Positions 3,823 to 53,596 of a stretch of DNA of 64,000 nucleotides are shown one piece after another. Both the position numbers and the translations under genes were made by a program. Numbering within the stretch: position 1 is the stretch's first letter; each line of letters begins with the position of its first letter. Origin of the DNA: Peribolospora baueri (taxonomy: Eukaryota); assembly GCA_029717555.1 (NCBI GenBank), contig JAMDHS010000022.1, positions 62,001-126,000 on the forward strand, given 5' to 3'. The notes under the pieces are model-generated. The model was not told where the DNA came from. It searched no databases and saw nothing but the letters and a program-made list of their open reading frames with translations.

Positions 3823-5534
3823 ATGACAATGCCTACCAAAGGCCTGCTCAAGACCATACCCGCCGTCTTCTATAGAGGCGGGACAAGGTGCGGCGAGCGA
3901 GCCCATCTGGCTGATCTCGGACCGCCACGGGAGGTCCTATTTCGCGATGCAGTTGCTGACCACCGGCGTTCGCGTTTCCCTTTCTCTCACACCCAGCAAG
4001 GGTCTCTTCTTCCAAGCTCGTGATCTTGCAGCCTACACGCAGGATGTGAGGACGCGCGTATTGCTCTCGGCCATGGGTGAGCTCGTGTCCGCTCGTTTAG
4101 TTGCATCTCTCAGCAGCTCCGACGCAGCTGTTGACTCGCAATTCCACCGCGGCTGTGCAGGCAGTCCAGATCCAGACGGACGGCAGATCGATGGGCTGGG
4201 CGGGGGCGTGTCTAGTCTGTCGAAGGTCGCCATTGTCTCTGGGAGAGGCGAGGGCTGGGACGACAGGATGGCGGGGCCCGAGTACGCTTGGCCCGGGGTG
4301 GACTGGAAGCACGCTCAAGAGGAGGCCGAGGTGGAAGGGAAGGAGTGGGACGTGAACTACCTATTCGGACAAGTGGGCGTGCGCGAGTCCACGATTGACT
4401 GGGCATCGACGTGCGGAAACTTGATGGCCGCTGTGGCTCAGTACGCCATCGACGAGCGACTGCTCTCCCCACGTCGAATAGCCTACCTCGAGCGACGATG
4501 GCTATCTTCCCCGGCCTCGTCCACTGGCGCCTCCTCCTCTCTGCCCTTCCGCGTTCCCGTGCGCATCCTAGCTGCCAATACGGGCGCGCGCATCACGGCT
4601 CACGTAGAGCTGGCGAGAGAGGCCGCGGACACGGGCGGGTTTCAGGCGGCAAAGAGCGGCGGAGCGGCCATCGCAGGCGTGCCTGGGACGGCGAGCCCAA
4701 TCGTGATTGAGAGTCCGTTAAAGAGGGATCATCTCGTCACGGGGAGGGAGAGGGATGTGTTCGAGGTGGATTGCAAGAAGGTAAGCCAGCCGGGTGGTCT
4801 CCTAATGACATATCGCTCGAGACTCTTTTCAACGACCGGTCAGCGACCGGGAGTGCCCTTTCCTGAAATCGCATCTGCTTTTTCGCCTGCAGCTAGAGTG
4901 CACGATCATCGACGCCGGCCTGCCCACGATTCTCCTTCCTCTTTCCTCGCTCGCACAACTCCTCCCCTCTTCGTTCGCCGAGAACGCGTCCCACTTCTTC
5001 TCTCTCTCCCCCGCGGACCTCGACGCGCACCCTTCCTTCCTCTCGGCAGTCGAGCGCGTCCGCCACTCAGCTTGGCACGCGCTCCGGGATGACCCCGATG
5101 CGGCGGCGAGGTCGTTCTCAGCGACGGCGCCCAAGGTGGCCATCGTGGGGCCGTCGACGCCGTACAAGAGCAGCGGGGGGCGGACGGTGGACGGGGAGGA
5201 GCAAGACGTGACAGTGCGAGCGGTGAGCGTGGGCAACGTGCATCGGACGATCATGGCCACCGCGCTCTCCGCTATGGCCGTCGCGGCCGCCTACCCTCGC
5301 TCAGTTGTCGCCGAAGCGGTGGGTGGGCGGAAGGTGCGCGACGACGAGGACGCGGCGATGATACGGCTGAGAGTGGGTCAACCGGCAGGCGTGAGCGAAG
5401 CGTCGGTGGCGCTGGACGGGGCGGGACAGCCGAGGAGCATCGTCGTGGTTAGGACGGCTCGACGGCTCATGCAGGGCCAGGTGCTCGTCCCTGACAGTGC
5501 TTTCGGCGGAGATACGATGGGGGGCCCTCTGTGA
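3823..5534 (+). CDS. PrpF-family (aconitate/methylaconitate delta-isomerase-like) protein
   Basis: Intron 3888-3996 joins IPAVFYRGGTS-KGLFF. Family motifs GSPDPDGRQIDGLGGGVSSLSKVAIV, STCGNL, IAGVPGTASPI and VGNVHRTIMAT are present. Second intron ~4781-4892. Confidence 0.9.
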
Positions 5535-6086
5535 GGACATGTATCAATCGCTCGTTAGTCCGTCCGTCCGTCCTTTCTTCCGTCTTTCCTTCCTGTGGCG
5601 TAGATTAGATCCGACCTGGAGATCCCGTGGGGTCCCCGGCGGCCCGGCGGCAAGCGATGCCTTGGCGGCCTTGTCTGCACAGCGGCAACGGAGATGCACC
5701 TCGTCCAGGCGGCCACGGCCATCATGACCTGGCCTTGATCGTTCATTATTGGCTCTTCGGCGCCGGCGATTTTCGCCTGCCGACGGCGGCCGAGGGGGTG
5801 GAGTGCGTGCCGCAGCGGGCTTGGAGGGGTTGGGATACGCTCGTGCGAGGTGGGCCAAGCCATCGGTCATTAGGCCTGTCTAAAGAATGCGCCAGCAAGG
5901 TCGTCATGTCATGTCATGGCCAACCACGGCTTGCCTGGAATCGGCTGGTTTCGGGTCGGCGACCTCTGCTGGCCCTTAAATCGACGGCCGCTCGGACCGA
6001 TGGTTGGCTTGGACTTGTGCTCCCTCCCTCCCTCCCATCCTCTCACACCACCTTGACCCGCCTCTGTCCGGAGCGAGAGCACCAAC

Positions 6087-9060
6087 ATGAGGCTCACGCT
6101 ACCCCTCTCCCTCGCCTTTCTCGCCTGGTCCTCCACGGGCCTCGTCGCCTCGCTCGGCGCAACCCCGCTTAGCCCGCTAGAGTCCGATCTCCTCGGCCTC
6201 TCTCCTTTCCACCTCCAGAGGCGCTTCCCAAGCGAGCCCGACCAGAACGTGACCGGCGAGGGAGGATTGGAGGACGCGAAGCGCCGCGCGGCCGACCTTG
6301 TGGCACAGCTCACCATCGAAGAGAAGGTCAACCTCACCACCGGCGTCGTGGGCCGGTGCGTCGGCAACACGGGCTCGGTCCATAGGTTCGGCATCCCGGA
6401 GCTCTGCCTCGAGGACGGTGAGCGAGCAAGGCCACGACGCGGAGACGCCGGTAGAATAGACTTCACGCTGTCTTCTCACTCTACCCTACCCTTCCTCCGG
6501 ACAGGACCCGCCGGAGTGAGGCCCACAGACGGCGCCTCGGCATTTCCGGACGGTGCGTAGCTCTGCTACACTGCGACCGGGGCACGGCCTCGCGCGGACA
6601 ACGAGTTGGACGTGTCCCTCTTGAACTTATTCCCTTGCCTTCCATCTGTCTGCTCTCTCCACAGGCGTGACCACGGCAGCAACGTGGGACAGAGACCTCA
6701 TGTACCTCCGCGCCAAGGCGATGGGCCAGGAATTTTACGGCAAGGGGGTTCACATTGTATGTGCCCCGTCCTTCGATCTCCTTTCGGCGCCTCTGTGCAT
6801 CCCCTCTTCGCTGACCGGCTTTTGTGTTTTCCGTGTTCACACTGACAGGCTCTTCAGGTAGGTCCTTCTCGCTCGAGGCGCTAGGGGCCGAAAAGTGGAC
6901 GTGCTCGTCTTATCGTCTCGTGCTTTTCACATCGCTCGTTGTCGGCCGCTCCCATCAAGCCAGTGACAGGTGAGCGTTTTCGACAAGTGACGAGCCCCGC
7001 CCCACATCGTAACGTGTCTGCAGAGTTCCGCTGAACACGTTTCCTTCCTCCAACCTTGTCGACCAAGGTGGTCCCCTCGGTGAGTCACTTACACCCGCCT
7101 TGCCAAGCGAGATCGCACGCGAATGACGACGTCTCCTTTCCTCCTGCACAGGACGCAGCCCGTACGATGGCAGAAGTAAGAGACGTCGCCCTTAATGTGT
7201 CGTTCACCGCACACTGCCTCTTTGTCTCAATCGCCTTGTCCCCGCATTCGCGCAGATTGGGAGGGCTGGTCACCGGACCCGTACCTGGTGAGTCCAAGAG
7301 CCGCCCCTCCCGACACTCAGCCTCGGACGACAGTTGACCTGGTGGATCGGTTCGCAGACCGGCGTGGGCTCCTACCAAAGCGTGGCGGGCACGCAGGATG
7401 CCGGCGTGTCGGCTTGTTCTAAACACTACATCCTGTGAGCGCTCTGCCCAGCCGAACCCATTCCTTTCGACTCCTTTCATCATGCCATTGAGCTCATTCG
7501 CACATTTTTTCTTTCTATGTCACGACTGCCTATGCAGGTATGAGCAGGAGACATTCAGAAGCGTTCCTTTCGTAAGCCACAGCCCCTCTCGCACGGGACC
7601 GCCCAAATCAAGTATGCTCAGCAACCCTCTCTCATTCCCTTCACCGTAGGCTCCGTACGACAATCCCTTGACTATATCAGAGAATGCCAACGACAAGACA
7701 ATTCACGAGCTCTACCTCTGGCCGTTCGCGGAAGCGCTCAGGGCGGGAACTGCGGCTATCATGTGCAGCGTGAGTGGAGGACGTGAGGACAGGCTATTTG
7801 TCCCACATGCCGTCAGACACCGTAGACTGACGACGTAATCAATTCCCGACTACTACAGTACAATAGTATGTGATAGGCGTCTTTGTCGTGCGCTGATGAT
7901 TCTTAATCGCTGAGAGCGCCTGTTTATCATCCCGACGCCAACCAGGAATCAACGGAACTGTGAGTCAAGGTTCTCTCAGCCTACGTCGTTATTCTTTTCT
8001 GGCCTTGTCTCTAACTGGCTGACCCGTATCCACCATGCCTTTTTGTTTCCATTCAGCGTGCGTTCCGTCCGCTCTCGTCTTGCTCACTGTCACGCCCCAT
8101 GCTCACCGCTTTGATTGTATTCTCCGTTCCAATGGTTGTGATCACCGAGCAGAAGGTGAGCTTACCTTTTCATCCGCCGTACCATCCGTTCGTTCGTTCG
8201 GCCTTGGCTGATTTGAAATCGTCGGCGCCAGCTTGCGAATCGAACTACGCTCTCAACCGTATCCTCAAGGATGAGCTGGACTTCCAAGGCATCGTCATCA
8301 GGTGCGCTTCGGTGATCCACATCCGTGCCCAGCTCGTTGGGGGACGTGTTGCTGAAAGAGGCCTGACTCCACGTGTCCGATTTTTTTGACCATGTCAGCG
8401 ACTGGGGAGCCGTCTACTCGACCTCCCCCAGCGCAAATAACGGTCTGGGTAAGTCCCCCACGGCCTCCACCCGTCGTGTAGCGGCTCCAGAGCTGAGCTT
8501 GTTGACTCGCGTGTGGGCGCAGACATGGAAATGCCCGGCGGACCGGGCGCTTTCTTCGGAGCCAATTTGACCAACGCTATCAACTCGGGACAAGTCCCTG
8601 GCTGGCGCCTGGATGATATGGCGGAGCGCATTCTTCTGCAGTATTTCCTCAGGGGTCAAGACTCCGGGTAGGCTTCCGAATCATTCTTTTCGGTGGAATT
8701 TCCACACGTCCTGAGACTAGTTTTCTCCGACGCCTATCGCAGCTACCCTGCCACCAATTTCCACAGCAACACACTCGCCACCTATTTGAACGGAACTCTG
8801 GTCAACGAGCACGTGAACGTGCAAGCGGACCACAGGAAGATCATTCTAGAGATCGCCACGGACGCGATCACGCTGTACAAGAACGATCGTACGCCCGGCA
8901 AGCGCGGGCTGCCGCTGAACAAGCCCAAGAGCCTCGCAGTCTATGGCTCCGACGCAGGACCGAGCCCCCTTGGCGCCAACGGATGTCACGGAGCTGGGAC
9001 TCAGGACGGTGGGAATGTGTGCCCGGCCAATTCGACCAATGTGAGCACTACTCGTCCATG

Positions 9061-9107
<47 letters not shown>

Positions 9108-10706
9108 CTTCTTCTTCTTCTCTAATCTCGCTTTTTGAAAAGCTGACTTTAACATCAACTCGCCCCTCGCTCTAGAACGGCACTTTTGCTCTCGGTGGCG
9201 GTTCGGGTGGTGCACGGTTCCCCTACCTCATCGACCCGCTCGCGGCTCTTCAGGCCCGTGCGCGCGAAGAGGGTACGTGGATCGACTCGTACCTTGACGA
9301 CTTCTCCGCCACCTCGGACACCGTCGACCTCGATATGATCGCAGGCGCTGCCGACGCTGCCCTCGTGTTCGTCCAGGCTCGCGCGTCTGAAGGCAGTGAT
9401 AGGACCAACCTCAGTCTGTGGGACAACGGGTGAGCGTCGCTCGTGTTTCTCGGAAAGCCCAGGTCTGCCGGTTTGCTGATACCGGCACGCGTACCTTCTT
9501 TTGCGTCCTGACAGCGACGAGCTCATTAAGAAGGTTGCGAGCATCAAGTGAGCGGCGAGCTGCTTTGCATGCCCCCACCGGTTTATCGCCCACTCTCTGA
9601 CCTGTGTATCCTCACCTCCAGTCCCAACACCATAGTCGTCATGCATACCGTCGGCCCAGTGTGGATGGACGATTGGTTCCACCATCCGAACGTCAGCGCC
9701 GTCGTGCACGCTTACTTGCCTGGTGAGCGGCGAAGGTGTGCCGCCCTCGCTTGCGTTCTCAACTCAACGGCGACCGTGCTTGCTCTTTTCTCGTGCGGTA
9801 GGCCAGGAAAGCGGCAACGCCATCGTAAGGATTCTGTACGGCGACGTGGCTCCTTCGGGCAAGAGCCCGTTCTCGGTACTTTCCAAGAAGGACGCGGCGG
9901 CGCTTATTCCGATCATCGGGACTACCAACGACGTCCAGGGAGACTTCCGGGACCCTGGCCGCAACTTTACGGACCCTCAAGAGGACTTTACCGAGGGCGT
10001 ATTCATCGACTATCGATCCTACGACGCCAAGAACATCACCCCGCTCATCGAGTTTGGCTTCGGGCTCTCGTACACGACCTTTGGATATTCGAACTTGAAC
10101 ATCCGCAAAGGCACGGGTTACTCACCGACTCGCGTGCCCGTCGATCCCAACGCTGACAAGGGTCCGGGCGGACGCCCTTCCGACTTTGAATACCTCCTCA
10201 CCGGTGAGTCGTCGGTCAGTCTTAGGTACGACCAAGATGCGATTTGGCACACAGGGGTATCTGACCGTGTCTTGGATTTGACACCGAAAGCGTCTGTGGA
10301 CGTCACGAACACGGGCAAGGTCACCGCGAGCGAGGTTGCGCAGCTCTACCTCGGGTTCCCCCCGTCTGCCGGTGCTCCTCCAAAGCAGCTGCGCGGCTTC
10401 TTCAAAGTGAAGAACCTTGAGCCAGGCAAGAGCGCGACGGCTACTTTCAACCTGACGAGGAAGGACTTTAGCGTCTGGGTGAGCGGTAGCATAGCTGGCT
10501 CGTGGAGCGGTGAAAGCGACCGCGGTCATCTCACTTTACCTTTTTTTTTTTTTTTTTGTTTTCCCTTTCTCTCGCGCTCCCAGGACACCGCGACGCAACG
10601 CTGGCAAATCCCGTCCGGCGAGTTCACCGTCATGGTCGGCAAGAGCTCCCGCAAGATCGTTCATAAAGCCACCGTGACGGCCAAGAACGGCGAGCTAGCG
10701 TGGTAG
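6087..10706 (+). CDS. Secreted glycoside hydrolase family 3 beta-glucosidase (~25 exons, many microexons)
   Basis: Signal peptide [16 protein letters not shown]3 motifs [85 protein letters not shown] (nucleophile Asp), [25 protein letters not shown]. FnIII-like tail EVAQLYL..PKQLRGF. Confidence 0.95.
9063..9107 (+). repeat. poly(T)45 tract inside a GH3 intron
   Basis: Homopolymer run within intron ~9041-9175, followed by (CTT)n. Confidence 0.95.
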
Positions 10707-11664
10707 AAACGGAGCGCCCACCTGCCCCGCACCCTCTCCTGCTCCCGTGACCCCCATCGTGGAGTCAAGGCCACAATCCCATCATCCAAGCGCCTCCTCA
10801 CGATCTTTGAACACGAGCACGGACCACGTACCTTTCTTCGATACCGTGTAGTATGTACATACACACTGTACCTGTCGAGACCCCGGGGGCGCCAGCCCGG
10901 GACGCTTTTTTTTCTTTTTTCTCTTGCGCCCCCCCTTGTCATCTCAAATAGGACATGAACCTTCTTTACACATCGACTGCTCGTCGACGTGGTCGAGCGA
11001 GGCACTCATCCTGGCGCAAAGGTATGAAGGGGACAGGCCGAAAAGTCGATTCGATCTCCTCCGCTTCTAGTCGTCGTATAGATGAGACGGGTATACGAGC
11101 GTTTTCCGCCATCTTCCACGCTTTCGACGACGGACGACGGTCTTTTTGGCCGACGAGCTCGCCCGTTCGTCCGTCGCTCTGATCTGATCGTCATCTGCCG
11201 GCTTCCGTCCGAACACCGTGTCGTGACGGACGACGCGTGTGCACGGATGGATGCGCGCATTTTCTCACGAGCCCCTTCGCTCCGTTTGCCCCTTCATCGA
11301 TTGGGGCCGCGGCGGGGAATGCACATGGAGGGGATCGATGCCAGTGGTGGTCACACAACTTTGCTTCCCGACGGAGAAAAAAGTGTCTGGTTACCATTTC
11401 ACCAATGGGAACAAATAAAAAAGGTACGGTAAGAATCAAAGAGGGGGCGCTAAACGGCCATCTCTCTTCTGCATGACTCGACCAACACGATGGCCGAATC
11501 GTGGAGAAGGATGTGAAAGTGGAAGTGGGGGAGGGTCCCATGTACGAATGCGGAACGCTCTCTTAACCTGTGATCAGTGAGCCGTCAAAGGAAAGAGGGA
11601 CGAACCATGTCAGACGGCGTCGGCAAAGCGGCTATGAATGGGTCGTTGAAATGACGGCGCGCGC

Positions 11665-16008: not shown

Positions 16009-17836
16009 ATGTCGGCTCGTCATACTCGTGCGGTTCGCTCTGTCGCCGCTCAGCTCACGGCCGTCAGTCGCAGTCGGCCTGTGATCCGGTCGTCATTCCC
16101 GCTGCGACCAGTGGACGGCGGCCTCAGCTCGCCTTTTGCGTCTCCCGCCAACGTACAACGAAGAACGCTCTTCGGCGGTCTATTCGGCTCGAAGAAGAAA
16201 GGGAAGGACAGCTTTGCCTCTCGGAAGCTCGAGCCGGTGCTCGCACAAGACGACCTCTTCCACCCTTTCTCCCAATCCCCCTTCGCCGCCGTCCGTGCCC
16301 GCGGCGAGCGGGTGACCTCCCAGGCTCCGTGTCCGGTGTGTCTGGAGGAGCACGGGGAGAGGAGACCGGCGCAGTACGAGTGTCCGGATTGTGGCTGGCC
16401 CACGCATTGCAGTCCGCATCACCACGGAGAGGACACGGAGCATGCGCGCTATTGCCCTCAGCTCAGGCAAGCGAACGAGGACGAGCATGACCTGAGAAGC
16501 GGGAGGGCGATGGCTGAATTTGAGATGCCGGGTGAGTGCCAGGTCCCCATTATGTCGGCATGATTAAGTTCTTAATTGATCCTTCCTTCCTTCCTCATTT
16601 CCGTCTTCTTCGTATACGAAAGGCGACCAACCGTATGAAGAAGCAGTGAACATGGCCAATTGGGACCTTCTCTTATACACGCGCAATTTTAACTCGGTCG
16701 AGTCGGAGCGTTCCAAACGGCATGTTACCAAGCTGCTCACTTTCCCCATCAGCGTTGGCGGCATCTTGCATCAGAACAGCCCTTACACCACCCGTAATCA
16801 GAGGCTGACCCACGAAGGCTTGCGGTCGCTCGCCGGTGAGTCCATGCTGTGGTGTGCCTGGGATTGAAGCCGGGTCGTCTCGGAATGGTCTGACACGATG
16901 TCCGCGGGGCTTTTACTGCCTCCACCAGCTCTCCGCACCATCCTTCACCCGCCCTTGGGCAGGAAGGGCGAGCCAGAAACCGTCCGTCTCTTCATTCTTG
17001 GGGCGAGGGCAGAGTCGTCGCTGCCGGTGCACGTCTGGGAGCAGATCAGCCATCTTTTCCCCGGAGTGCCATTCCACATTTTCTTGATCGGACCGGAGGC
17101 TTCGTTTCCGGCCTCTCAGGCTCCTTTCGCTGCACCTCGACCTTCGACAGGTTCAACCTCGTCCACTCCATCATCGCCATCCTCCTCCTCCCCCTCGTCG
17201 TCTTCTGCGGGCGGCTCCAACTCGGCCGGCGAGCTCTCGACGTCGGCGTCCTCACCCTCAGGTCGGGATCACATCAAAGAAGTCAACTACGGTGTCCCCT
17301 CGCGAACGATCGTCGCCTCCGAGTTCCTCACCCTGACTGTCCTTCAGACGCCCTACGAGATGATCCACGAACAGTTCGCCCCTTTCGACCCATACACCGA
17401 CGCCTTCTTCGCCTTCTCCCCGGGCTTCGGCTTCCCTTCGCAGCGCACCGCGCCGTTGGCTGACGCCGTCGTTGCCACCGAGGTGTCTGCCGAGCGGTCG
17501 GACGTGGAGACCCCGCCGTCGCCGCCAATGGTGCAAGCGCAAGCGGAATGGGCGCAAGCGATCGCACAGATCCTGGGTACCAAGTGCGCGCTCTTCAACT
17601 TTGGCTTCTCCCCCGCGGACGTGGAACGTGACGTGCGCGCGTTCACCTCGGTGCCTGGCGTCGCGGGCGAGTTCGACTGGGTGGTGCACCCTGGGGAGAA
17701 CGTGTTCGCGAGCCAGAAGCTGGAGATTGCCGAGTTTGACCCGAGGGTGCAGGTCAAGGCCAATTGGGGCGTTTGGGGCGTCAGGGGCAAGCGATACGAG
17801 GTGTCTCAAGGGGAGGAAGAGGAGATGGCGGTGTGA
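16009..17836 (+). CDS. MSS51: Mitochondrial COX1 translation/assembly factor Mss51
   Basis: Arg-rich presequence. zf-Mss51 motif CPVC...CPDCGWPTHCS...C..LRQANEDEHDLRSGR..EFE.P, then NWDLLLYTRNF, LFILGARAESSLP, FDPYTDAF and ANWGVWGVRGKRY. Introns ~16532-16622 and ~16836-16928. Confidence 0.92.
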
Positions 17837-18068: not shown

Positions 18069-20041
18069 CTACCAGATGGAGCGAAAGGCGCCAAAGACAA
18101 AGTTGGCGGCCATGGCCATGACGACGGCGACCTGCATCCTCTTGCTGAAGACGACAGAGGCGCCAGTGCGATGGTTGGACATGTCATCCTCCTCCACGTC
18201 GTCGTCGTCATCGTCGTCCACGGCCGAAGTGCGATCACGAAAGAAGAAGAGAGGCGTCTGGAGGGAGAATGTAAGCGACGCCGGGATGCGACAGGAGAGA
18301 AGGAAGGAGGGCCTTCGATCGGTACGAAGACGAGCTCGATATGGGCCGCACTGAAAAAGGCGAGGCCCAAACCCCTGGCTTGGGGACCGACTCACCAAGG
18401 GGAAGAAGAATCCGGTTAGAAGGCCTTGGAGGACGGTGACGTACATGCCCTCGGTGGAGGTGCCGGCCTCTGCAGCGCCCTCTCCGGACATGTCATCGAT
18501 CCATTGCTAGAAAACATCGCGTCAGAGGGAAGAGAGTGGGTTAGAGACAAACTTTATAATCGCGCCAGAAGAGAGGCGACCTAGTCAAGATGAGGTGAGA
18601 AGGAAAAAAGGGGAGCCCACCTCTTCCAATGCTCGAGCGTGTTCGTCGTCTGTACGAACGGACGGGGGAGGAAAAAAAGCAACATCTAGCGAATTGCTCG
18701 AGGAGAACAGAAGGAAGAAGAACACGCAGACACTCCTCACCTTGTTCATCATCCAACGTGCCCCCGATCCTGCCCTCCCCAGCGGCGGAGGAGTTATGGA
18801 ACTGCCTGCGGATATCCTCGATGTCTTCCTCGGAAAACCCGGCCGTGCGCAGGCGATCAAAGCCGCGGACGGGGCGGAGTTGAGTGGTCTGGCAATCCGG
18901 AAGAAGGAGAATGGGTAATAAGGACCGACGTGCGCTTCTCGACGTGCGCACTGCCGAAATCGGCTGCCGCGTAAGATGAACCGAGTCGAGAGGCGCGAAG
19001 GAAGGACTGACCTGCTCCCTTTCCACCGCCTCCTCTCCCTCCTCCATCACGTCGCCAACGGAACACTGCAAATACACCTTCGGCTTATCTTTCTTCTCTC
19101 TCTTCTTCGCCGCCTCCCTCGCGTCACCGCCATTGCGGTCCTCTTCCTCCCCCTCCCCTTCCACCCCCGCCATCTCCTCGATAGCCGCCATGAGCTCCCC
19201 AGCGGCGGACCTACGGGCCCTCTCAGCCTGGCGACGCTGCTTCGCTTCAAGCTGATCAAGCCAAGAAGCGAGCAACGTCCCGTCGGAGAGGATTCGTCCG
19301 GAATGGATGAGTCGGAGACGGCGCTGAGAGAGCTGCCGGTGGAGGTTTCGGATCTGGTGTTTGGAAAAGCCGGCGGACAGGGTGAGATGGCACACATGGA
19401 CGAGATTGTGCATCGTGCGGAAAGGACACACAAGTAGGCGTCCAAACCAACGATTCGATGCCACCCATGTCATCTCGTCATCTACGCACCTTCTGCTTCA
19501 CAGCCCTGACGCTCTCCTCGAATCCGATTGTCACGTTCAAGTCCTCTGAGCCGTCCGTGAAGCGCACCGTCACAGCCCTTTGCGGCGGAGGCGGCAGCGA
19601 CGGCCGAGAGAGGTGTTGAATGTCCGTTGCACCGGCGTCGCTAATGTCTGCCTTGGAAACGTCGCCGTCGGTATCCCAAGCCCTCCTCATGCGCCTTGTC
19701 GTCGTGTAAGCGCCCGTACCCTCTGAGGCGGACCTCCGTCTCTCGTCTGCTCCCATCTCTTCAAGGCCTTTCGTACCCGCCTCGTCCGCATCTACGCCTA
19801 CGTCATCCGTAGCGCGCTGTTTGCCCTTGGCCTTTGCGCTCATCCCTGTCCTCGCCCCCGCCGCTGCCCCATCCGAATCTGCGCCAGTGTCGCCGTGCGC
19901 AGTGGCGCTCCCGTTCGCGTCGGCGGAGTGCACGCTCGACGAGGCGGCGGTGGTGTCGGCCAAAAAGAGACCTCGTTCAAGGTCGGCCTGTGCAGCGTCG
20001 GTCGCGGCGCCTCGCCTCGTCGTGTCTCCTTGCTCTGACAT
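18069..20041 (-). CDS. DSC3: DSC E3 ubiquitin ligase complex subunit 3 (DUF2407 ubiquitin-like)
   Basis: VTVRFTDGSEDL, RLRLIHSGRIL, VYLQCSVGD, RGFDRLRTAGFSEEDIEDIRRQFH, ALEEQWID, and C-terminal TM segments LQGLLTGFFFPL and VFSKRMQVAV. Confidence 0.88.
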
Positions 20042-25723: not shown

Positions 25724-28137
25724 TCAGAGCGTGTAGAAAAAGCCGGGACTCCGATCGCCGATAGGCGCCTTGGTCTTTCCTCTGCTGACCAACTCGTCAT
25801 ACCGCTCCACGTTCCCTTCCCGTCTCCCTTCTCTACGCGCACGGTTCTCCCAGATGCAGTAGACGACGTTGAGGAAGAAGGCGAGCCAGCCTAGGCAAAG
25901 ACAGCCGAGGACGATGGCGTGCCCTTGGCGGTAAGCTGGAGCGTCGGTCTGGCGGTAGGCGAAGGTGGCGACAAAGCTGGGTGATAGGAGCGGTGAGAGG
26001 TGGATATGGTCGACGCAAAGGGTGCAGAAGAAGGAAAGTGGATACGGGGGCGGTTGAGTACAGGCAGCGACGTATCATGGAATGCCAGGCCCCCGAATGA
26101 ACGCGTCATAAAGGTCGGATCGTCCGAGCACACACTCACCCGGCGCAATTGGCAATCATGAGCTGAAGAGCTGTGGACGTGGCCCTCTTGTAATGCCCGG
26201 CATGGTTGTTGGGAAGGATGCTGAGGATGCACGGAGCTGCTGGGTAGATGCCAAGGGCAACCAGGAAGACGCCTGCATCTGTTTCAAGGAACGGTGTGGA
26301 GAGGTGGCCGATACCGTGAAGGGGGGGTATGTCAGCGACCATCGACCATGGGGTGCAGCACTGTGCCGTGTAGAAACGGGAAGAGAAGGGCAGGAAGAGG
26401 AACCGCCTTACATCTTGCGCGGTTAGAGTTGGTGACGACAAGGATTATATACCCGGCGATGGAGATGGGCAAAAGGAAAAGGATGAGGGGTCCCCTCCAT
26501 TTGAGCCTGTCGGCGAGCACGGCGATGGCGACAGTGGCCACGGCGGCGGGTACATATGGCGGTACGGTGAAGAGTTGAGCATGAGTGCCCTTGTATCCCA
26601 TGCCGGTGATGATGGTGGGCAGGAAGAGAGAGTAGGAGTACAGCGAGCAGCACAGGCAAAGGTAGCCGATGCCGGTGAGCCACGACTGGATGTCGAAGAT
26701 GCCTCGTCGCACTTCGAGCCACTCTATCCCTTCGTCGTGGTGTGTTACCGTGGCCGGCGGGTTGACGTACGTGTCCGTGCCAGGCGCCCCCTTCTCCGTG
26801 TTGCGATTTCCGCCATCAGCGTGTTCGATGCGGGCCTCGGAAGACTTTTCGTCTTCAAGAACGACGGCGGAAGCAATGCCGTCGGTCGCATCTCCCTTTG
26901 GGATGGGAAGACCTCGACGAGCGGCGGCCATGTCCTTGGAGAGAGCGTGGAGCGCCCAGGCCCGCTCCTCCTCGGTTAGAAACTTTGCCTTCTTCACGCT
27001 CTCCGGCATTACTAGACTAGTGCCGATGCCGATGAGGACAGTGGCGATGCCCTCGATAATGAACTGATTGCAGAGGGGAGGGAGAGGGAAGCCAGATGCT
27101 AGGCAAGCGTCGGCATCCGTTTGGCGCGGAGCAGCGACCTGCGAGGACAAGGCACACTCACGATCCACCTCCAGCCAGCGAGGTTGCCAAGGCCATCCAT
27201 TTGCTCGAGGCCAGTGGCAAAGAGACCCTGAGAAAAGAAGCAAACGTCGAGGATCGGCACGTCAGGCGGGTGATGGAGTGCTTCGAACCGCATACTGCCC
27301 GTCCCGCAAGATCGTCCATCTCGTGCGACTTACTCCGAAAGCGCCGCTCAGCGATGCGGCGGAATAGAAGATGCCGATGCGCAGCTGTAGCTCGTGCCTC
27401 CGGTAAAGGGTAGAGAGATAGAGAACTGAAAGAGGCGGGATATAAAACAGAGGACGGGAGGCATTCAGCACACTCTTCTTGGCAGGTCGGCGGCAAGCGC
27501 TACGAGAGCACAGGAGAGATACCGGCGATCAGCTTCGTCCTCCCCATGGGAGCCGAGCCACTCACCCATCCCCGGCAACAGGCCGCCCTCACAAAAGCCG
27601 AGAACGGAGCGAATAACCAAGAGACCGGCATAGTTCTGCACGATTCCCGAGAGGGTGGTGACGAGGCCCCAAGCGGTGACGATGAGGGGGAGCCAGAAGT
27701 TGGGGCGCATGCGTTTGAGGACAAGGTTGGAAGGGATTTCGGATATGATGTAAAAGACCTGGAGGGGAGGTTGAGTGGGTAGAACGTTTTAGTCGCGGAA
27801 CCTCGATTCCTCGCAGGAACACAAGCCGAGCCGAGGGCCGAGGGGAACGGAGAGGGCTCACGTAGAAGATGGCCAGGGCGGTGTTAAACTGCGTGCCCTC
27901 CAAGTGCAGAGAGGTGGTCAAGCCGGCGATCCTAGCGTTTCCGACGTTGGACCGGTCGATGAAGTTTGCAAGCCAGAGCAGGGCCAAGGGGGGCAGGACG
28001 TGGATGTCGAGCTTGCGGAGCGTGGAGCGCCGGAGGCGCGCTGTCTCTTCCGAGTCGCTGTCGGCGGGGCGGTACGAGAGCTCATTTCGGTTGTCGTCTC
28101 TCGCCTCGTCCTCTGTCCGGACTTGTCCTGGCTCCAT
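25724..28137 (-). CDS. MFS transporter, anion:cation symporter (Dal5/Tna1 allantoate-nicotinate permease-like)
   Basis: LRKLDIHVLPPLALLWLANFIDRSNVGNARIAG, EIPSNL, RSVLGFCEGGLLPG, LAGWRW.FIIEG, SLFLPTII, AQLFTVPPY, NNHAGHYKRAT; C-terminus IGDRSPGFFYTL*. Confidence 0.92.
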
Positions 28138-36460: not shown

Positions 36461-36758
36461 TTGACGGGCTATCGAAACGGTGCATGTACACGTCATGATT
36501 TGCCTTGGCACATAGATGAATACATGAGTTCTTCATGCAATGCGCCGTACGTACACGTCACATGGTACCGTACATGGAAGTCCTGGTGTAGCTGGCACCT
36601 GGCACAATGGACGGCCTGCGGTGACGCACTATTTTGAAAATCGTGATTTCATGTCGATGAGAAGAGAGAAGGGGGCTAAAAAGAGGGAAGGAAAATCATG
36701 AAAGGCGTATGATACATGCACCTTGCGTTCAAACAACACCTGGTCTAGTCACGAATGG

Positions 36759-36799
<41 letters not shown>
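36759..36799 (+). repeat. poly(A)41 tract (poly-U in the 3' UTR of the minus-strand MAPR gene)
   Basis: Homopolymer ~40 nt downstream of the stop at 36839 on the minus strand. Confidence 0.95.
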
Positions 36800-36801
<2 letters not shown>

Positions 36802-36838
36802 AAGAAAGAAAGCATGCCTGTTTTCCGTCGCTCCTCGC

Positions 36839-51310: not shown

Positions 51311-53596
51311 ATGCTCGCCCGGACGACGTGCGTCCTCTCCACCCATGGCGCGCGCACGATCGACCCGAGCCGCCTGCCTCGAACGGCGGCGGCGACGACG
51401 ACGACGACGACGAGAGCGTTGCACTTGACGATCCGTCAGGCTCTCCAGCGTCATCGCTCTCCTTCGTCGGCCTCCTCCGTTCCAGATCCGTCCCTGTCAT
51501 TAGGACTGGGCGCAGAAGAGATCACCATTAGCGGATGGGTTCGCTCCGTGCGCAGACAGAAGCGACGCGCCTTTGTCGAGATCACCGACGGCTCTATCAC
51601 CGCGCCTTTCCAGTCCGTCGTCACACTCGATGGCGGTGATGCGCAAGACTGGACGGGTAGGTGAGCTGCTCTCCTTATCCTTGTTCCAAGGCTGTCAGAT
51701 GCGACAGCCTTACTGCCTGACGGAGAACAGCACTGCAAGGCTTGGCTCACTGTTTTGCCCTATCCCCTTCCTCCCTTCTTGCTCATTTCCCAACCCTTTC
51801 AGTTTGACCTCAGGCTCCTCTGTCTCTCTCACCGGATTCCTCAGGAATAGCCCAGGTAGAGGTCAGGACACGGAGCTGCAGGTCACGCGCATCAAGCTGC
51901 TCGGCGGGTCCGACCCTTCGGTGAGCCGGCGGAGCGCCGTGCAAGGTTAAACCGACCTCGTCTACACGACCCGTTCTGGCTGACCGACCCATGTGTAATT
52001 CCCGCTCCCATTCGCGACAGCGCTACCCTATCCAAAAGAAACGTCTTTCCCCTGAATTCCTCCGCTCTCAAGCTCACCTCCGTCCCCGCACCACCACCGG
52101 CGGCGCCGTGTTGCGGGTGAGAGATGCGCTGATGAGGGGCGTCCACGATTATTTTGAGGTGGGTCAAAGGGGTGATCCGGATCGGGTGTTTCGCGGATCT
52201 CGGCACGGCGGGCAGGTGAGCTGACAACCGATCCCTGCTTTTTTTTGTGGATTACCAGCAACATGACTTCGTTCACGTCCACACGCCCATCCTCACCTCC
52301 AACGACTGCGAAGGCGCTGGCGAAATGTTCCAGGTGTTGCCGCCCCAAGACCCTACCCCGTCCCTGTCTGCCCCTCATCCTTCCCCCTCGTCCTCCTCTA
52401 CACCGGACGGATCTCCTCTTCCACCGCTCCACCCGCCCGCGGATACCTTCTTCACCCCGCAAGCCCGACTCACAGTCTCCTCCCAGCTCCACCTCGAAGC
52501 CGTCTCCGCAAGCCTCGGCAGGGCATACACTCTCAGCCCTTGTTTTCGCGCCGAGCCTTCGCAGACGAATCGGCATCTCGCCGAGTTTTATATGCTCGAG
52601 GCCGAGATGAGCTTTGTAGGATTGGAACGGGAGCGGATAAGCGGACTTCATGGTGGCGATGGTGAGGATGGCGACGGTGGTGGTGTCCGGCGGCTGGAGG
52701 GGCGGGAGGACGGGTTGGAAGAGGTGATGGACGTCGTTGAAGGGTTTCTCAAGCATGCCGTGGGCTCGCTAATAGAGGTGGAAGGGACAACCGCTGCCGC
52801 CGGGAGAACGGCACGCTCGGCGAGAGCACTAGAGGACCTCCGACACCTCTTTGCGGCCGCGGAGGACTCCAAGAGCGAGGCTGAGATCGCTCGTCAAGAG
52901 CGACAGCGAGAGCAAAGAGGAGACCTTGGCGCCGCTTCCACCTCACCCCCGGTAGTCTCTTCCTCCGCCCCTCCTCTCACCCTTCTCGACTCCCTCTACG
53001 CCCACTTCACCCCCACCACCCCGCGCTGGCCCCGCCTAACCTACACCCAAGTTCTGACCCTCCTGCATGCCCACCATGCTCACACTCCTTTTATTACCGC
53101 CCCGCCGACGTGGGGGAAAGGTTTGGCCGCCGAGCACGAGAAGTGGCTCGCAGGAGAGCACGTGGGCGGGCCCGTGTTCGTGACGGACTACCCGAGGGCG
53201 ATCAAGCCATTTTACATGCGCGTCAACGATGCGCGATCGAATGCGGCGCAGGAGGAGGCAGTGACGGTCGCATGCTTTGACCTCCTCGTCCCCCGTCTCG
53301 GCGAGCTCGTGGGCGGCAGCCTCCGCGAGGAGCGTCTTGACGTGCTCCTCTCCTCCCCTCATCTCCCTGAAGCGATCAAGAAGGCACGAGACGACGGCGG
53401 CTCCCAGTCTCCTTCTCCGACTCGCTCCGCCCCGACACCGTCGCTAGACTGGTACCTCGACCTACGCCGCTACGGCACCGTCCCCCACGGAGGCTTCGGC
53501 GTCGGCTGGGAGAGACTCGTCGCCTTCGTCACTGGCGTCGACAACGTACGCGAAGCGACCGCATTTCCCAGGGCCGTGGGCGGTTTGAGATATTAG
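51311..53596 (+). CDS. SLM5: Mitochondrial asparaginyl-tRNA synthetase
   Basis: Presequence, then OB-fold [108 protein letters not shown] and [23 protein letters not shown]. Confidence 0.93.

Follow-up and report, generated by a model that had tools for sequence, protein, structure and literature searches.

A predicted one-nucleotide exon, followed by a three-nucleotide exon, in the conserved loop of a basidiomycete GH3 beta-glucosidase gene

How are the four nucleotides (nt) supplied that are needed to join two coding exons of a GH3 beta-glucosidase gene across a gap of 272 nt (7959 to 8232)? The question is raised by a stretch of 64,000 nt from Peribolospora baueri (GenBank assembly GCA_029717555.1, contig JAMDHS010000022.1, positions 62,001 to 126,000 of the forward strand), which is called the window here and in which positions are counted from the first letter. 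The favoured answer, to which we give a probability of roughly 0.65, is that the gap consists of three separate U2-type introns, split by an exon of a single base, C8057, and an exon of three bases, AAG (8153-8155). That C8057 is exonic in some form is likelier still. The predicted junction, ..GGAACT-C-AAG-CTTGCGAA.., would read ..GGA ACT CAA GCT TGC.. (Gly-Thr-Gln-Ala-Cys) and give the loop MCSYN-RINGTQA-C; four tiny exons in a row, of 7, 14, 1 and 3 nt, would then spell YNRINGTQ and the first base of the following alanine codon. This reading is favoured because the reading frame, its first rank among 188 candidate splice paths, the intron norms of the gene, the chance controls, the family loop, a related species (organism B) and fungal precedent all point the same way.

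Splice paths across the gap were enumerated from all GT/GC-AG sites, allowing intron lengths of 40-300 nt and at most three internal exons, each of 1-40 nt, and were scored by their summed splice-site bits. Of the 1260 paths obtained, 188 were in frame and free of stop codons. The path through C8057 and AAG ranked first, with 32.1 bits and RINGTQA before the cysteine; the same path with CAGAAG as its second tiny exon, through a tandem GAG acceptor, ranked second (31.8 bits, RINGTPEA(C)), and C8057 alone reached 24.1 bits (RINGTP(C)). From the strong donor at 7960, the frame is restored only by paths that include C8057, and, as had been claimed, a message that lacks both tiny exons, or has AAG without C8057, would be frameshifted, with its first stop at codon 325-326. 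The C plus AAG pair of the original prediction is not the sole in-frame solution: three others exist, which that prediction had missed (7964 to 8232, C8057 alone, and C8057 with CAGAAG). C8057 is thus required for the frame and restores the conserved motif, with the caveat that the weak donor at 7964 also keeps the frame. A further donor, GTTCTC at 7970 (RINGTVSQAC), was rejected, with a total of 0.6 bits, a weakest site of -1.4 bits and a 10-residue loop. The coordinates and motifs first reported for the region proved exact (7946-7959, C8057, AAG at 8153-8155 and 8232, with intervals of 97, 95 and 76 nt). At C8057 the acceptor AG and the donor GT directly abut the single base (8055-8063), and the introns on either side (97 and 95 nt) are complete, with donor, branch-like motif and acceptor, and have normal lengths; the second has a weak acceptor.

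The splice matrices were trained on 21 uncontested introns of the same gene, taken from our own curated model, and the controls built on them are thus internal rather than independent. These introns measure 70-135 nt (median 87 nt) and carry a purine at +3 and G at +5 in 21 of 21 cases; their acceptors are CAG in 15, AAG in three and TAG in three. G at +5 is likewise present in each of the three solid introns (100, 100 and 157 nt) found in the asparaginyl-tRNA synthetase (AsnRS) gene nearby. When each training intron was left out in turn, donors scored 0.3-10.7 bits and acceptors -2.1 to 9.4 bits. The proposed introns, described at the outset as normal-sized, indeed fall within the 70-135 nt of the other 21, and in all three, as in 12 of the 21 training introns, a YTRAY motif lies 20-42 nt from the 3' end.

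Chance was assessed over both strands of the window (128 kb). Among 380 AG-N-GT sites, only 8057 reaches an acceptor score of at least 8.2 bits together with a donor score of at least 4.9 bits; among 518 AG-NNN-GT sites, only 8153 reaches its own pair of scores. With the thresholds relaxed to at least -3 bits for acceptors and at least 4.8 bits for donors, 63 candidate exons of 1-3 nt were found in the 128 kb. When the elements were also set to lie 60-160 nt apart, the layout of a donor, two successive tiny exons and an acceptor occurred only once, at 7960/8057/8153.

The loop itself was surveyed in 155 sequences (120 listed proteins and 35 metagenomic loci) with a looser pattern, which found the motif in 85. 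Seven residues separate the flanking motifs in 76 of these and six in nine, and a loop of eight was found in none; the nine six-residue loops belong to one subfamily and read AVNGSA or AVNGSS. Under a strict pattern, 48 of 69 proteins of at least 600 residues matched, all with seven residues between CSYN and the cysteine, and 21 gave no match. Among the 76 seven-residue loops, position 6 is occupied by Tyr (56), Gln (9), Trp (6), Phe (3), Ala (1) or His (1), and never by Val; position 7 is occupied by Gly (34), Ala (32), Ser (5) or Val (5), and never by Thr. The Gln-Ala pair predicted here occurs in three of the 76, for example in metagenomic loci L001 and L010, and a homologue from the basidiomycete Meira miltonrushii (P0005) reads NINGTQGC. 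Judged by sequence, the C plus AAG reading fits the loop length and the residues of the family and the Val-Thr reading obtained from donor 7964 does not, while the two other variants that use C8057 yield a wrong loop length or a proline unseen at that place. The claim that the two tiny exons match the length of the fungal GH3 motif therefore stands, since C plus AAG restores the seven-residue spacing of 76 of the 85 homologues. The annotated P0005 protein lacks a conserved 13-residue segment and has unrelated residues there, before NINGTQGC; its gene model may have been mis-predicted, in a region of similar difficulty.

Relatives of the locus bear on whether the gap is genuine. The gene was present in four DNA runs of one study; two of them (X1/X2) may come from the source organism, and the two of organism B, a related species (X3/X4), contain about 40% of the sampled words. 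Its contigs span 6050-9050 with 88-89 differing letters. In X4, the ten listed indels of this interval sum to all 45 gap letters, and all ten lie in introns of the model (chance 0.002 at 47% exon content). None lies within 7506-8379, and organism B therefore has the same 4-nt requirement. Between 6087 and 6796, 15 differences fall in 471 exonic nt, ten of them at third positions and nine synonymous, and 14 fall in 239 intronic nt. This pattern indicates a gene under selection and, without proving the splice path, argues against both a pseudogene and an assembly indel, the two failures that the original prediction had itself named and that the comparison now disfavours. In both organisms (X1-X4), a paralogous GH3 gene matches parts of 8850-8964 and 10625-10657, with further exons in organism B; the similar spacing of the matches suggests that the paralogous copy is comparably intron-rich.

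The gene as a whole was modelled with our own protein-to-DNA spliced aligner from five full-length homologues, followed by manual curation; the aligner is unable to place a codon that is split by two introns. The preferred model has 26 exons, 25 introns and 825 codons without an internal stop, and the exons outside the gap are all open and align end to end with GH3 homologues. Single exons match the Pfam families Glyco_hydro_3_C (PF01915; 9176-9427 and 9804-10202) and Fn3-like (PF14310; 10293-10478). PF00933 was undetected on the single small N-terminal exons, and the N-terminal domain is covered by the spliced alignment to the five homologues, through ..GIVISDWGA... Its C-terminal and Fn3-like domains, together with an N-terminal domain that carries the SDW motif, identify the gene by sequence as a GH3 beta-glucosidase; the Asp of SDW is the nucleophile. 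No second GH3 copy was found within the window, and a search of both strands of 5900-10900 against Rfam gave no match. The coordinates of the locus and of its neighbours are collected in Table 1.

Table 1. Features of the GH3 locus and of neighbouring genes in the window. Scores are splice-site bits; the two tiny exons at 8057 and 8153-8155, and their splicing, are predicted.
Feature	Position	Strand	Details
GH3 beta-glucosidase gene	6087-10706	+	ATG 6087 to TAG 10706; signal-peptide-like N-terminus; homologue-guided spliced alignment and curation
Tiny GH3 exons, second run	9 nt 6849-6857; 10 nt 6960-6969; 12 nt 7068-7079; also 24 nt and 32 nt (span 6849-7287)	+	curated
Exon, 120 nt	7650-7769	+	ends ..ATC ATG TGC AGC (IMCS); donor GTGAGT at 7770
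Exon, 7 nt, TACAATA	7859-7865	+	Tyr, Asn, first base of Arg
Introns either side of the 7-nt exon	7770-7858 (89 nt); 7866-7945 (80 nt)	+	
Exon, 14 nt, GAATCAACGGAACT	7946-7959	+	rest of the Arg codon, then Ile-Asn-Gly-Thr; phase 0 at its end; GTGAGT at 7960 follows
Intron, 97 nt	7960-8056	+	donor GTGAGT 9.1 bits; acceptor ttcAG 8.2 bits
Branch-like motifs of the 97-nt intron, CTAAC/CTGAC			42 and 34 nt from the 3' end
Rival donor GTCAAG	7964-7969	+	keeps the frame with acceptor 8231 (RINGTVTC); -6.0 bits; lacks purine at +3 and G at +5
Proposed exon, 1 nt, C	8057	+	predicted first base of Gln codon CAA; context cattcAG/C/GTGCGT
Intron, 95 nt	8058-8152	+	donor GTGCGT 4.9 bits; acceptor gagCAG -2.9 bits; weakest of the three
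Motifs of the 95-nt intron			TTGAT 38 nt and CTCAC 47 nt from the 3' end
Tandem GAG acceptor of the 95-nt intron	8149		3 nt upstream of the 8152 acceptor; -3.3 bits
Proposed exon, 3 nt, AAG	8153-8155	+	predicted AA of the Gln codon CAA and G of the Ala codon GCT; context gagcAG/AAG/GTGAGC
Intron, 76 nt	8156-8231	+	donor GTGAGC 11.0 bits; CTGAT 20 nt from the 3' end; acceptor gccAG 2.0 bits
Exon, 70 nt, starts CTTGCGAA (CT TGC GAA TCG AAC..)	8232-8301	+	completes Ala; 22 residues follow; ends with first two bases of Ser of SDW; preceded by cgccAG
PrpF-like	3827-5089		Pfam on long open reading frame
MSS51 C-terminal domain	16868-17833		Pfam on long open reading frame
Dsc3 (DSC E3 ligase subunit)	18544-19497		Pfam on long open reading frame
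MFS transporter	26335-27261		Pfam, below cut-off
Class II tRNA synthetase, asparaginyl, mitochondrial type by matches	52220-53593		Pfam on long open reading frame

The gene is dense in introns, with 24-25 in 4.6 kb, and intron-like donor/acceptor pairs number 9-12 per 2 kb in it versus 0-7 elsewhere in the window on either strand. A second run of tiny exons lies in the stretch 6757-7357 and encodes a conserved segment. For its 9- and 10-nt exons the aligner favoured other exons, with a GC donor and with a donor that lacks G at +5; the version with canonical sites, whose length also equals that of the Meira homologue, was kept, and it is still a curated choice. Introner-like similarity was sought among 24 introns of the gene and against the rest of the window, and poly-T matches only were obtained. 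Long poly-T/poly-A tracts occur at 9051-9127, 10529-10573 and 36753-36816, with about 50 T inside the intron 9041-9175, and the first two of these tracts coincide with breaks in the short-read contigs of all four runs. The bases CAAG, the same that the two tiny exons supply, also stand at 7966-7969, directly after the GTGAGT donor and before a GT, which may be a coincidence or a trace of the history of the locus; their inclusion would call for the poor donor GTTCTC and yield the 10-residue loop.

The AsnRS gene, of the mitochondrial type, has about three solid introns and an uninterrupted exon of 458 codons; its product is 35-54% identical to proteins of Agaricomycetes, Rhodotorula, Puccinia and Naganishia. 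The identity of the GH3 protein reaches at most 57% among the matches listed. By these sequence matches, the host belongs to the basidiomycetes and has no close relatives in the protein collection; no GH3 protein from a close relative or derived from a transcript was found there, and a search of the same collection for an open reading frame called across the gap (8015-8389) gave no match. Among 18 long open reading frames of the window, Pfam assigned no family to 12. The closest of the 35 metagenomic fungal GH3 loci is 53% identical over the aligned protein. Only one of 24 intron positions coincides with an intron in these loci (L014, residue 168, phase 1), with near misses at residues 295/296 and 312. 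Such sparse sharing could reflect lineage-specific intron gain, or the loci could merely be distant paralogues.

Several observations weigh against a reading with two tiny exons. The middle intron is its weak part: at -2.9 bits, its acceptor scores below all 21 training acceptors (minimum -2.1 bits), and its donor, at 4.9 bits, lies near the low end. The matrices themselves come from 21 introns of a single self-curated gene, and three of these introns flank other tiny exons, where the aligner chose different exons with poorer sites. An in-frame path free of tiny exons exists through donor 7964. The search of sequencing runs for the gene listed four DNA runs and no RNA run, and the letter-by-letter comparison with organism B covers the differences listed up to 6796, upstream of the splice sites of the tiny exons. 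In addition, none of the 35 metagenomic loci, of which none is close, has an intron at the positions that flank the tiny exons.

The rival explanations differ in how much of the layout they retain. C8057 might be used with a different second tiny exon: AAG would be skipped, 8058-8231 being removed in one or two steps (RINGTPC), or CAGAAG would be included through the acceptor at 8149 (RINGTPEAC). Both paths are in frame and free of stops, at 24.1 and 31.8 bits versus 32.1 bits for C plus AAG; the acceptors at 8149 and 8152 are nearly equal (-3.3 vs -2.9 bits), and AAG/GT at 8154-8157 is a possible zero-length recursive site. However, the resulting loops would have six residues ending in Pro, or eight, and the homologues have seven in 76 of 85, six ending in Ala or Ser in nine, and eight in none; a GAG acceptor occurs in none of the 21 training introns, and removal of the AAG-skipping interval in one step would take an intron of 174 nt, longer than all 24 introns seen. 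These variants are unlikely. A reading that dispenses with the tiny exons altogether would extend the 14-nt exon by 4 nt (..ACTGTGA) and remove a single intron of 268 nt from the donor GTCAAG at 7964 to 8231, giving the junction ..GGAACTGTGA-CTTGC.. and the loop RINGTVTC. This path keeps the frame and a seven-residue loop, and the aligner chose it with five of five homologues, although the aligner cannot split a codon over two introns. Its donor scores -6.0 bits versus a range of 0.3-10.7 bits, has neither the purine at +3 nor the G at +5 that all 21 training introns possess (G at +5 also in 3/3 AsnRS introns), and lies 4 nt downstream of a perfect GTGAGT. Moreover, an intron of 268 nt would have 1.7 times the length of the longest one seen (157 nt), none of the 76 homologues has Val at position 6 or Thr at position 7, and the internal layout of splice signals would be left to chance, all of which makes this reading highly improbable.

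It is also conceivable that the locus is not productively spliced, being a decaying or frameshifted copy, an assembly error or the site of a non-canonical event. A paralogous GH3 gene in the same genome could carry the function, no RNA run was listed for the gene, and runs X1 and X2 have no cover of 6050-8850 and lend the assembly no support there. Set against this, organism B has the same length here, its indels are intronic in ten of ten cases, and its exonic differences favour third codon positions; the remaining exons all have an open frame and can be aligned with GH3 homologues, and the same assembly error in two species is unlikely. We regard an unproductive locus as very unlikely.

The layout was observed, as were its occurrence at only one place in the window and its agreement with the family; from these we infer the splicing of the three introns and its order as follows. 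The mature mRNA would complete the conserved GH3 loop upstream of the SDW nucleophile motif, and each intron, being shorter than 100 nt, would be recognised as a unit by intron definition. U1 at the 8058 donor would pair with positions -3 to +6, among which is the AG that ends the upstream intron; the introns on either side of C8057 would therefore not be engaged together and would be removed in turn, an argument also made for APC11 (PMC4674806). If the first intron were removed first, the lone C would come to stand at the end of an ordinary exon, CTC/GTGCGT, and the computed score of the second donor rises from 4.9 to 5.6 bits on its removal. If the middle intron were removed first, a 4-nt exon, CAAG, would lie between a strong acceptor and a strong donor. 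Either order is possible, and the step after the first removal would be routine. The on/off switching of enzyme production that the original prediction had suggested draws no support from these findings. A bolder proposal is that the tandem exons of 1 and 3 nt impose an obligatory ordered cascade with the weak middle intron as its rate-limiting step, so that splicing fidelity or kinetics would set the level of active secreted enzyme; a mis-step would then yield a frameshifted message, and the choice between the GAG and CAG acceptors would yield Thr-Pro-Glu-Ala or Thr-Gln-Ala isoforms. Another would see in the gene a lineage-specific burst of intron gain aimed at its most conserved coding segments, only one of its 24 intron positions being shared with any of the 35 fungal homologues and its neighbourhood being less intron-dense. 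Both proposals are speculative and, as they stand, rather improbable.

If the arrangement of C8057 and AAG is true, a further fungal gene with a one-base exon would be added to those known, and exons of 1 and 3 nt, one intron apart, would test how close splice sites can lie under intron definition. Exons this small are beyond what gene finders and protein-guided aligners can place, and our own aligner picked a poor donor; the enzyme would be expected to be annotated as truncated, frameshifted or altered in its conserved loop. The locus would be a useful test case for annotation and for work on splice order.

Two kinds of stepwise fungal or animal splicing invite comparison. In a stwintron (spliceosomal twin intron), as the sources at hand describe it, an external intron has its donor, branch site or acceptor split by an internal one. 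The likeness is that of a fungal intervening sequence that needs consecutive splicing reactions, and the original prediction had suggested a nested arrangement of this kind. A stwintron was rejected here: the introns follow one another, with bases retained between them; each of the three donors and acceptors stands uninterrupted in the genome; every signal is intact before splicing; and removal of the first intron alters only the exonic context of the second donor. Recursive splicing resembles the proposed layout in that an acceptor abuts a donor and removal would be stepwise, with the downstream donor coming into use once the upstream intron is out. At classical ratchet points, very long animal introns are divided up and no base is kept. 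Unlike them, the GH3 gene would keep one and three coding bases, between introns shorter than 100 nt.

One-base exons as such are already published, in Arabidopsis, Fusarium and Coprinopsis; what is unusual in the GH3 gene is the tandem of tiny exons and the run of four. For Arabidopsis APC11, the accessible part of the report describes a one-base exon proven by cDNA and by mutation of the base in green fluorescent protein (GFP) fusions, with an upstream intron of 333 nt, and its discussion cites recursive splicing at zero-length ratchet points (PMC4674806). As proposed here, the base is needed for the frame, and the authors argue for intron definition with sequential removal of the flanking introns; unlike the GH3 gene, APC11 is a plant gene, and no neighbouring 3-nt exon is described for it in that part of the text (PMC4674806).

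The view in the original prediction that internal one-base exons are very rare is outdated, as transcript-backed examples appear in the accessible portions of two fungal reports (PMC12940212; PMC12230235). In the Fusarium CYP621A P450 genes, a one-nucleotide exon, G (AGGGT), is aligned across 24 genes and confirmed by 18 SRA reads, according to what is available of that report (PMC12940212). There are parallels: in both cases an AG-N-GT lies between short introns, the gap is about twice the usual intron, automatic models are wrong, and the exon was deduced from mismatched phases of the flanking exons and a conserved motif one base short; in the GH3 gene, by contrast, the base is C, is deduced from sequence, and would be followed one intron later by a 3-nt exon (PMC12940212). 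In Coprinopsis cinerea, the excerpted long-read annotation, built on full-length transcripts, lists 13, 57 and 27 exons of 1, 2 and 3 nt, respectively, and leaving such exons out often leads to premature stops (PMC12230235). The GH3 exons differ in being predicted from the genome and in a host that is only distantly related; both fungi are basidiomycetes, and the Coprinopsis annotation shows tiny exons to be a regular if rare component of basidiomycete genes (PMC12230235).

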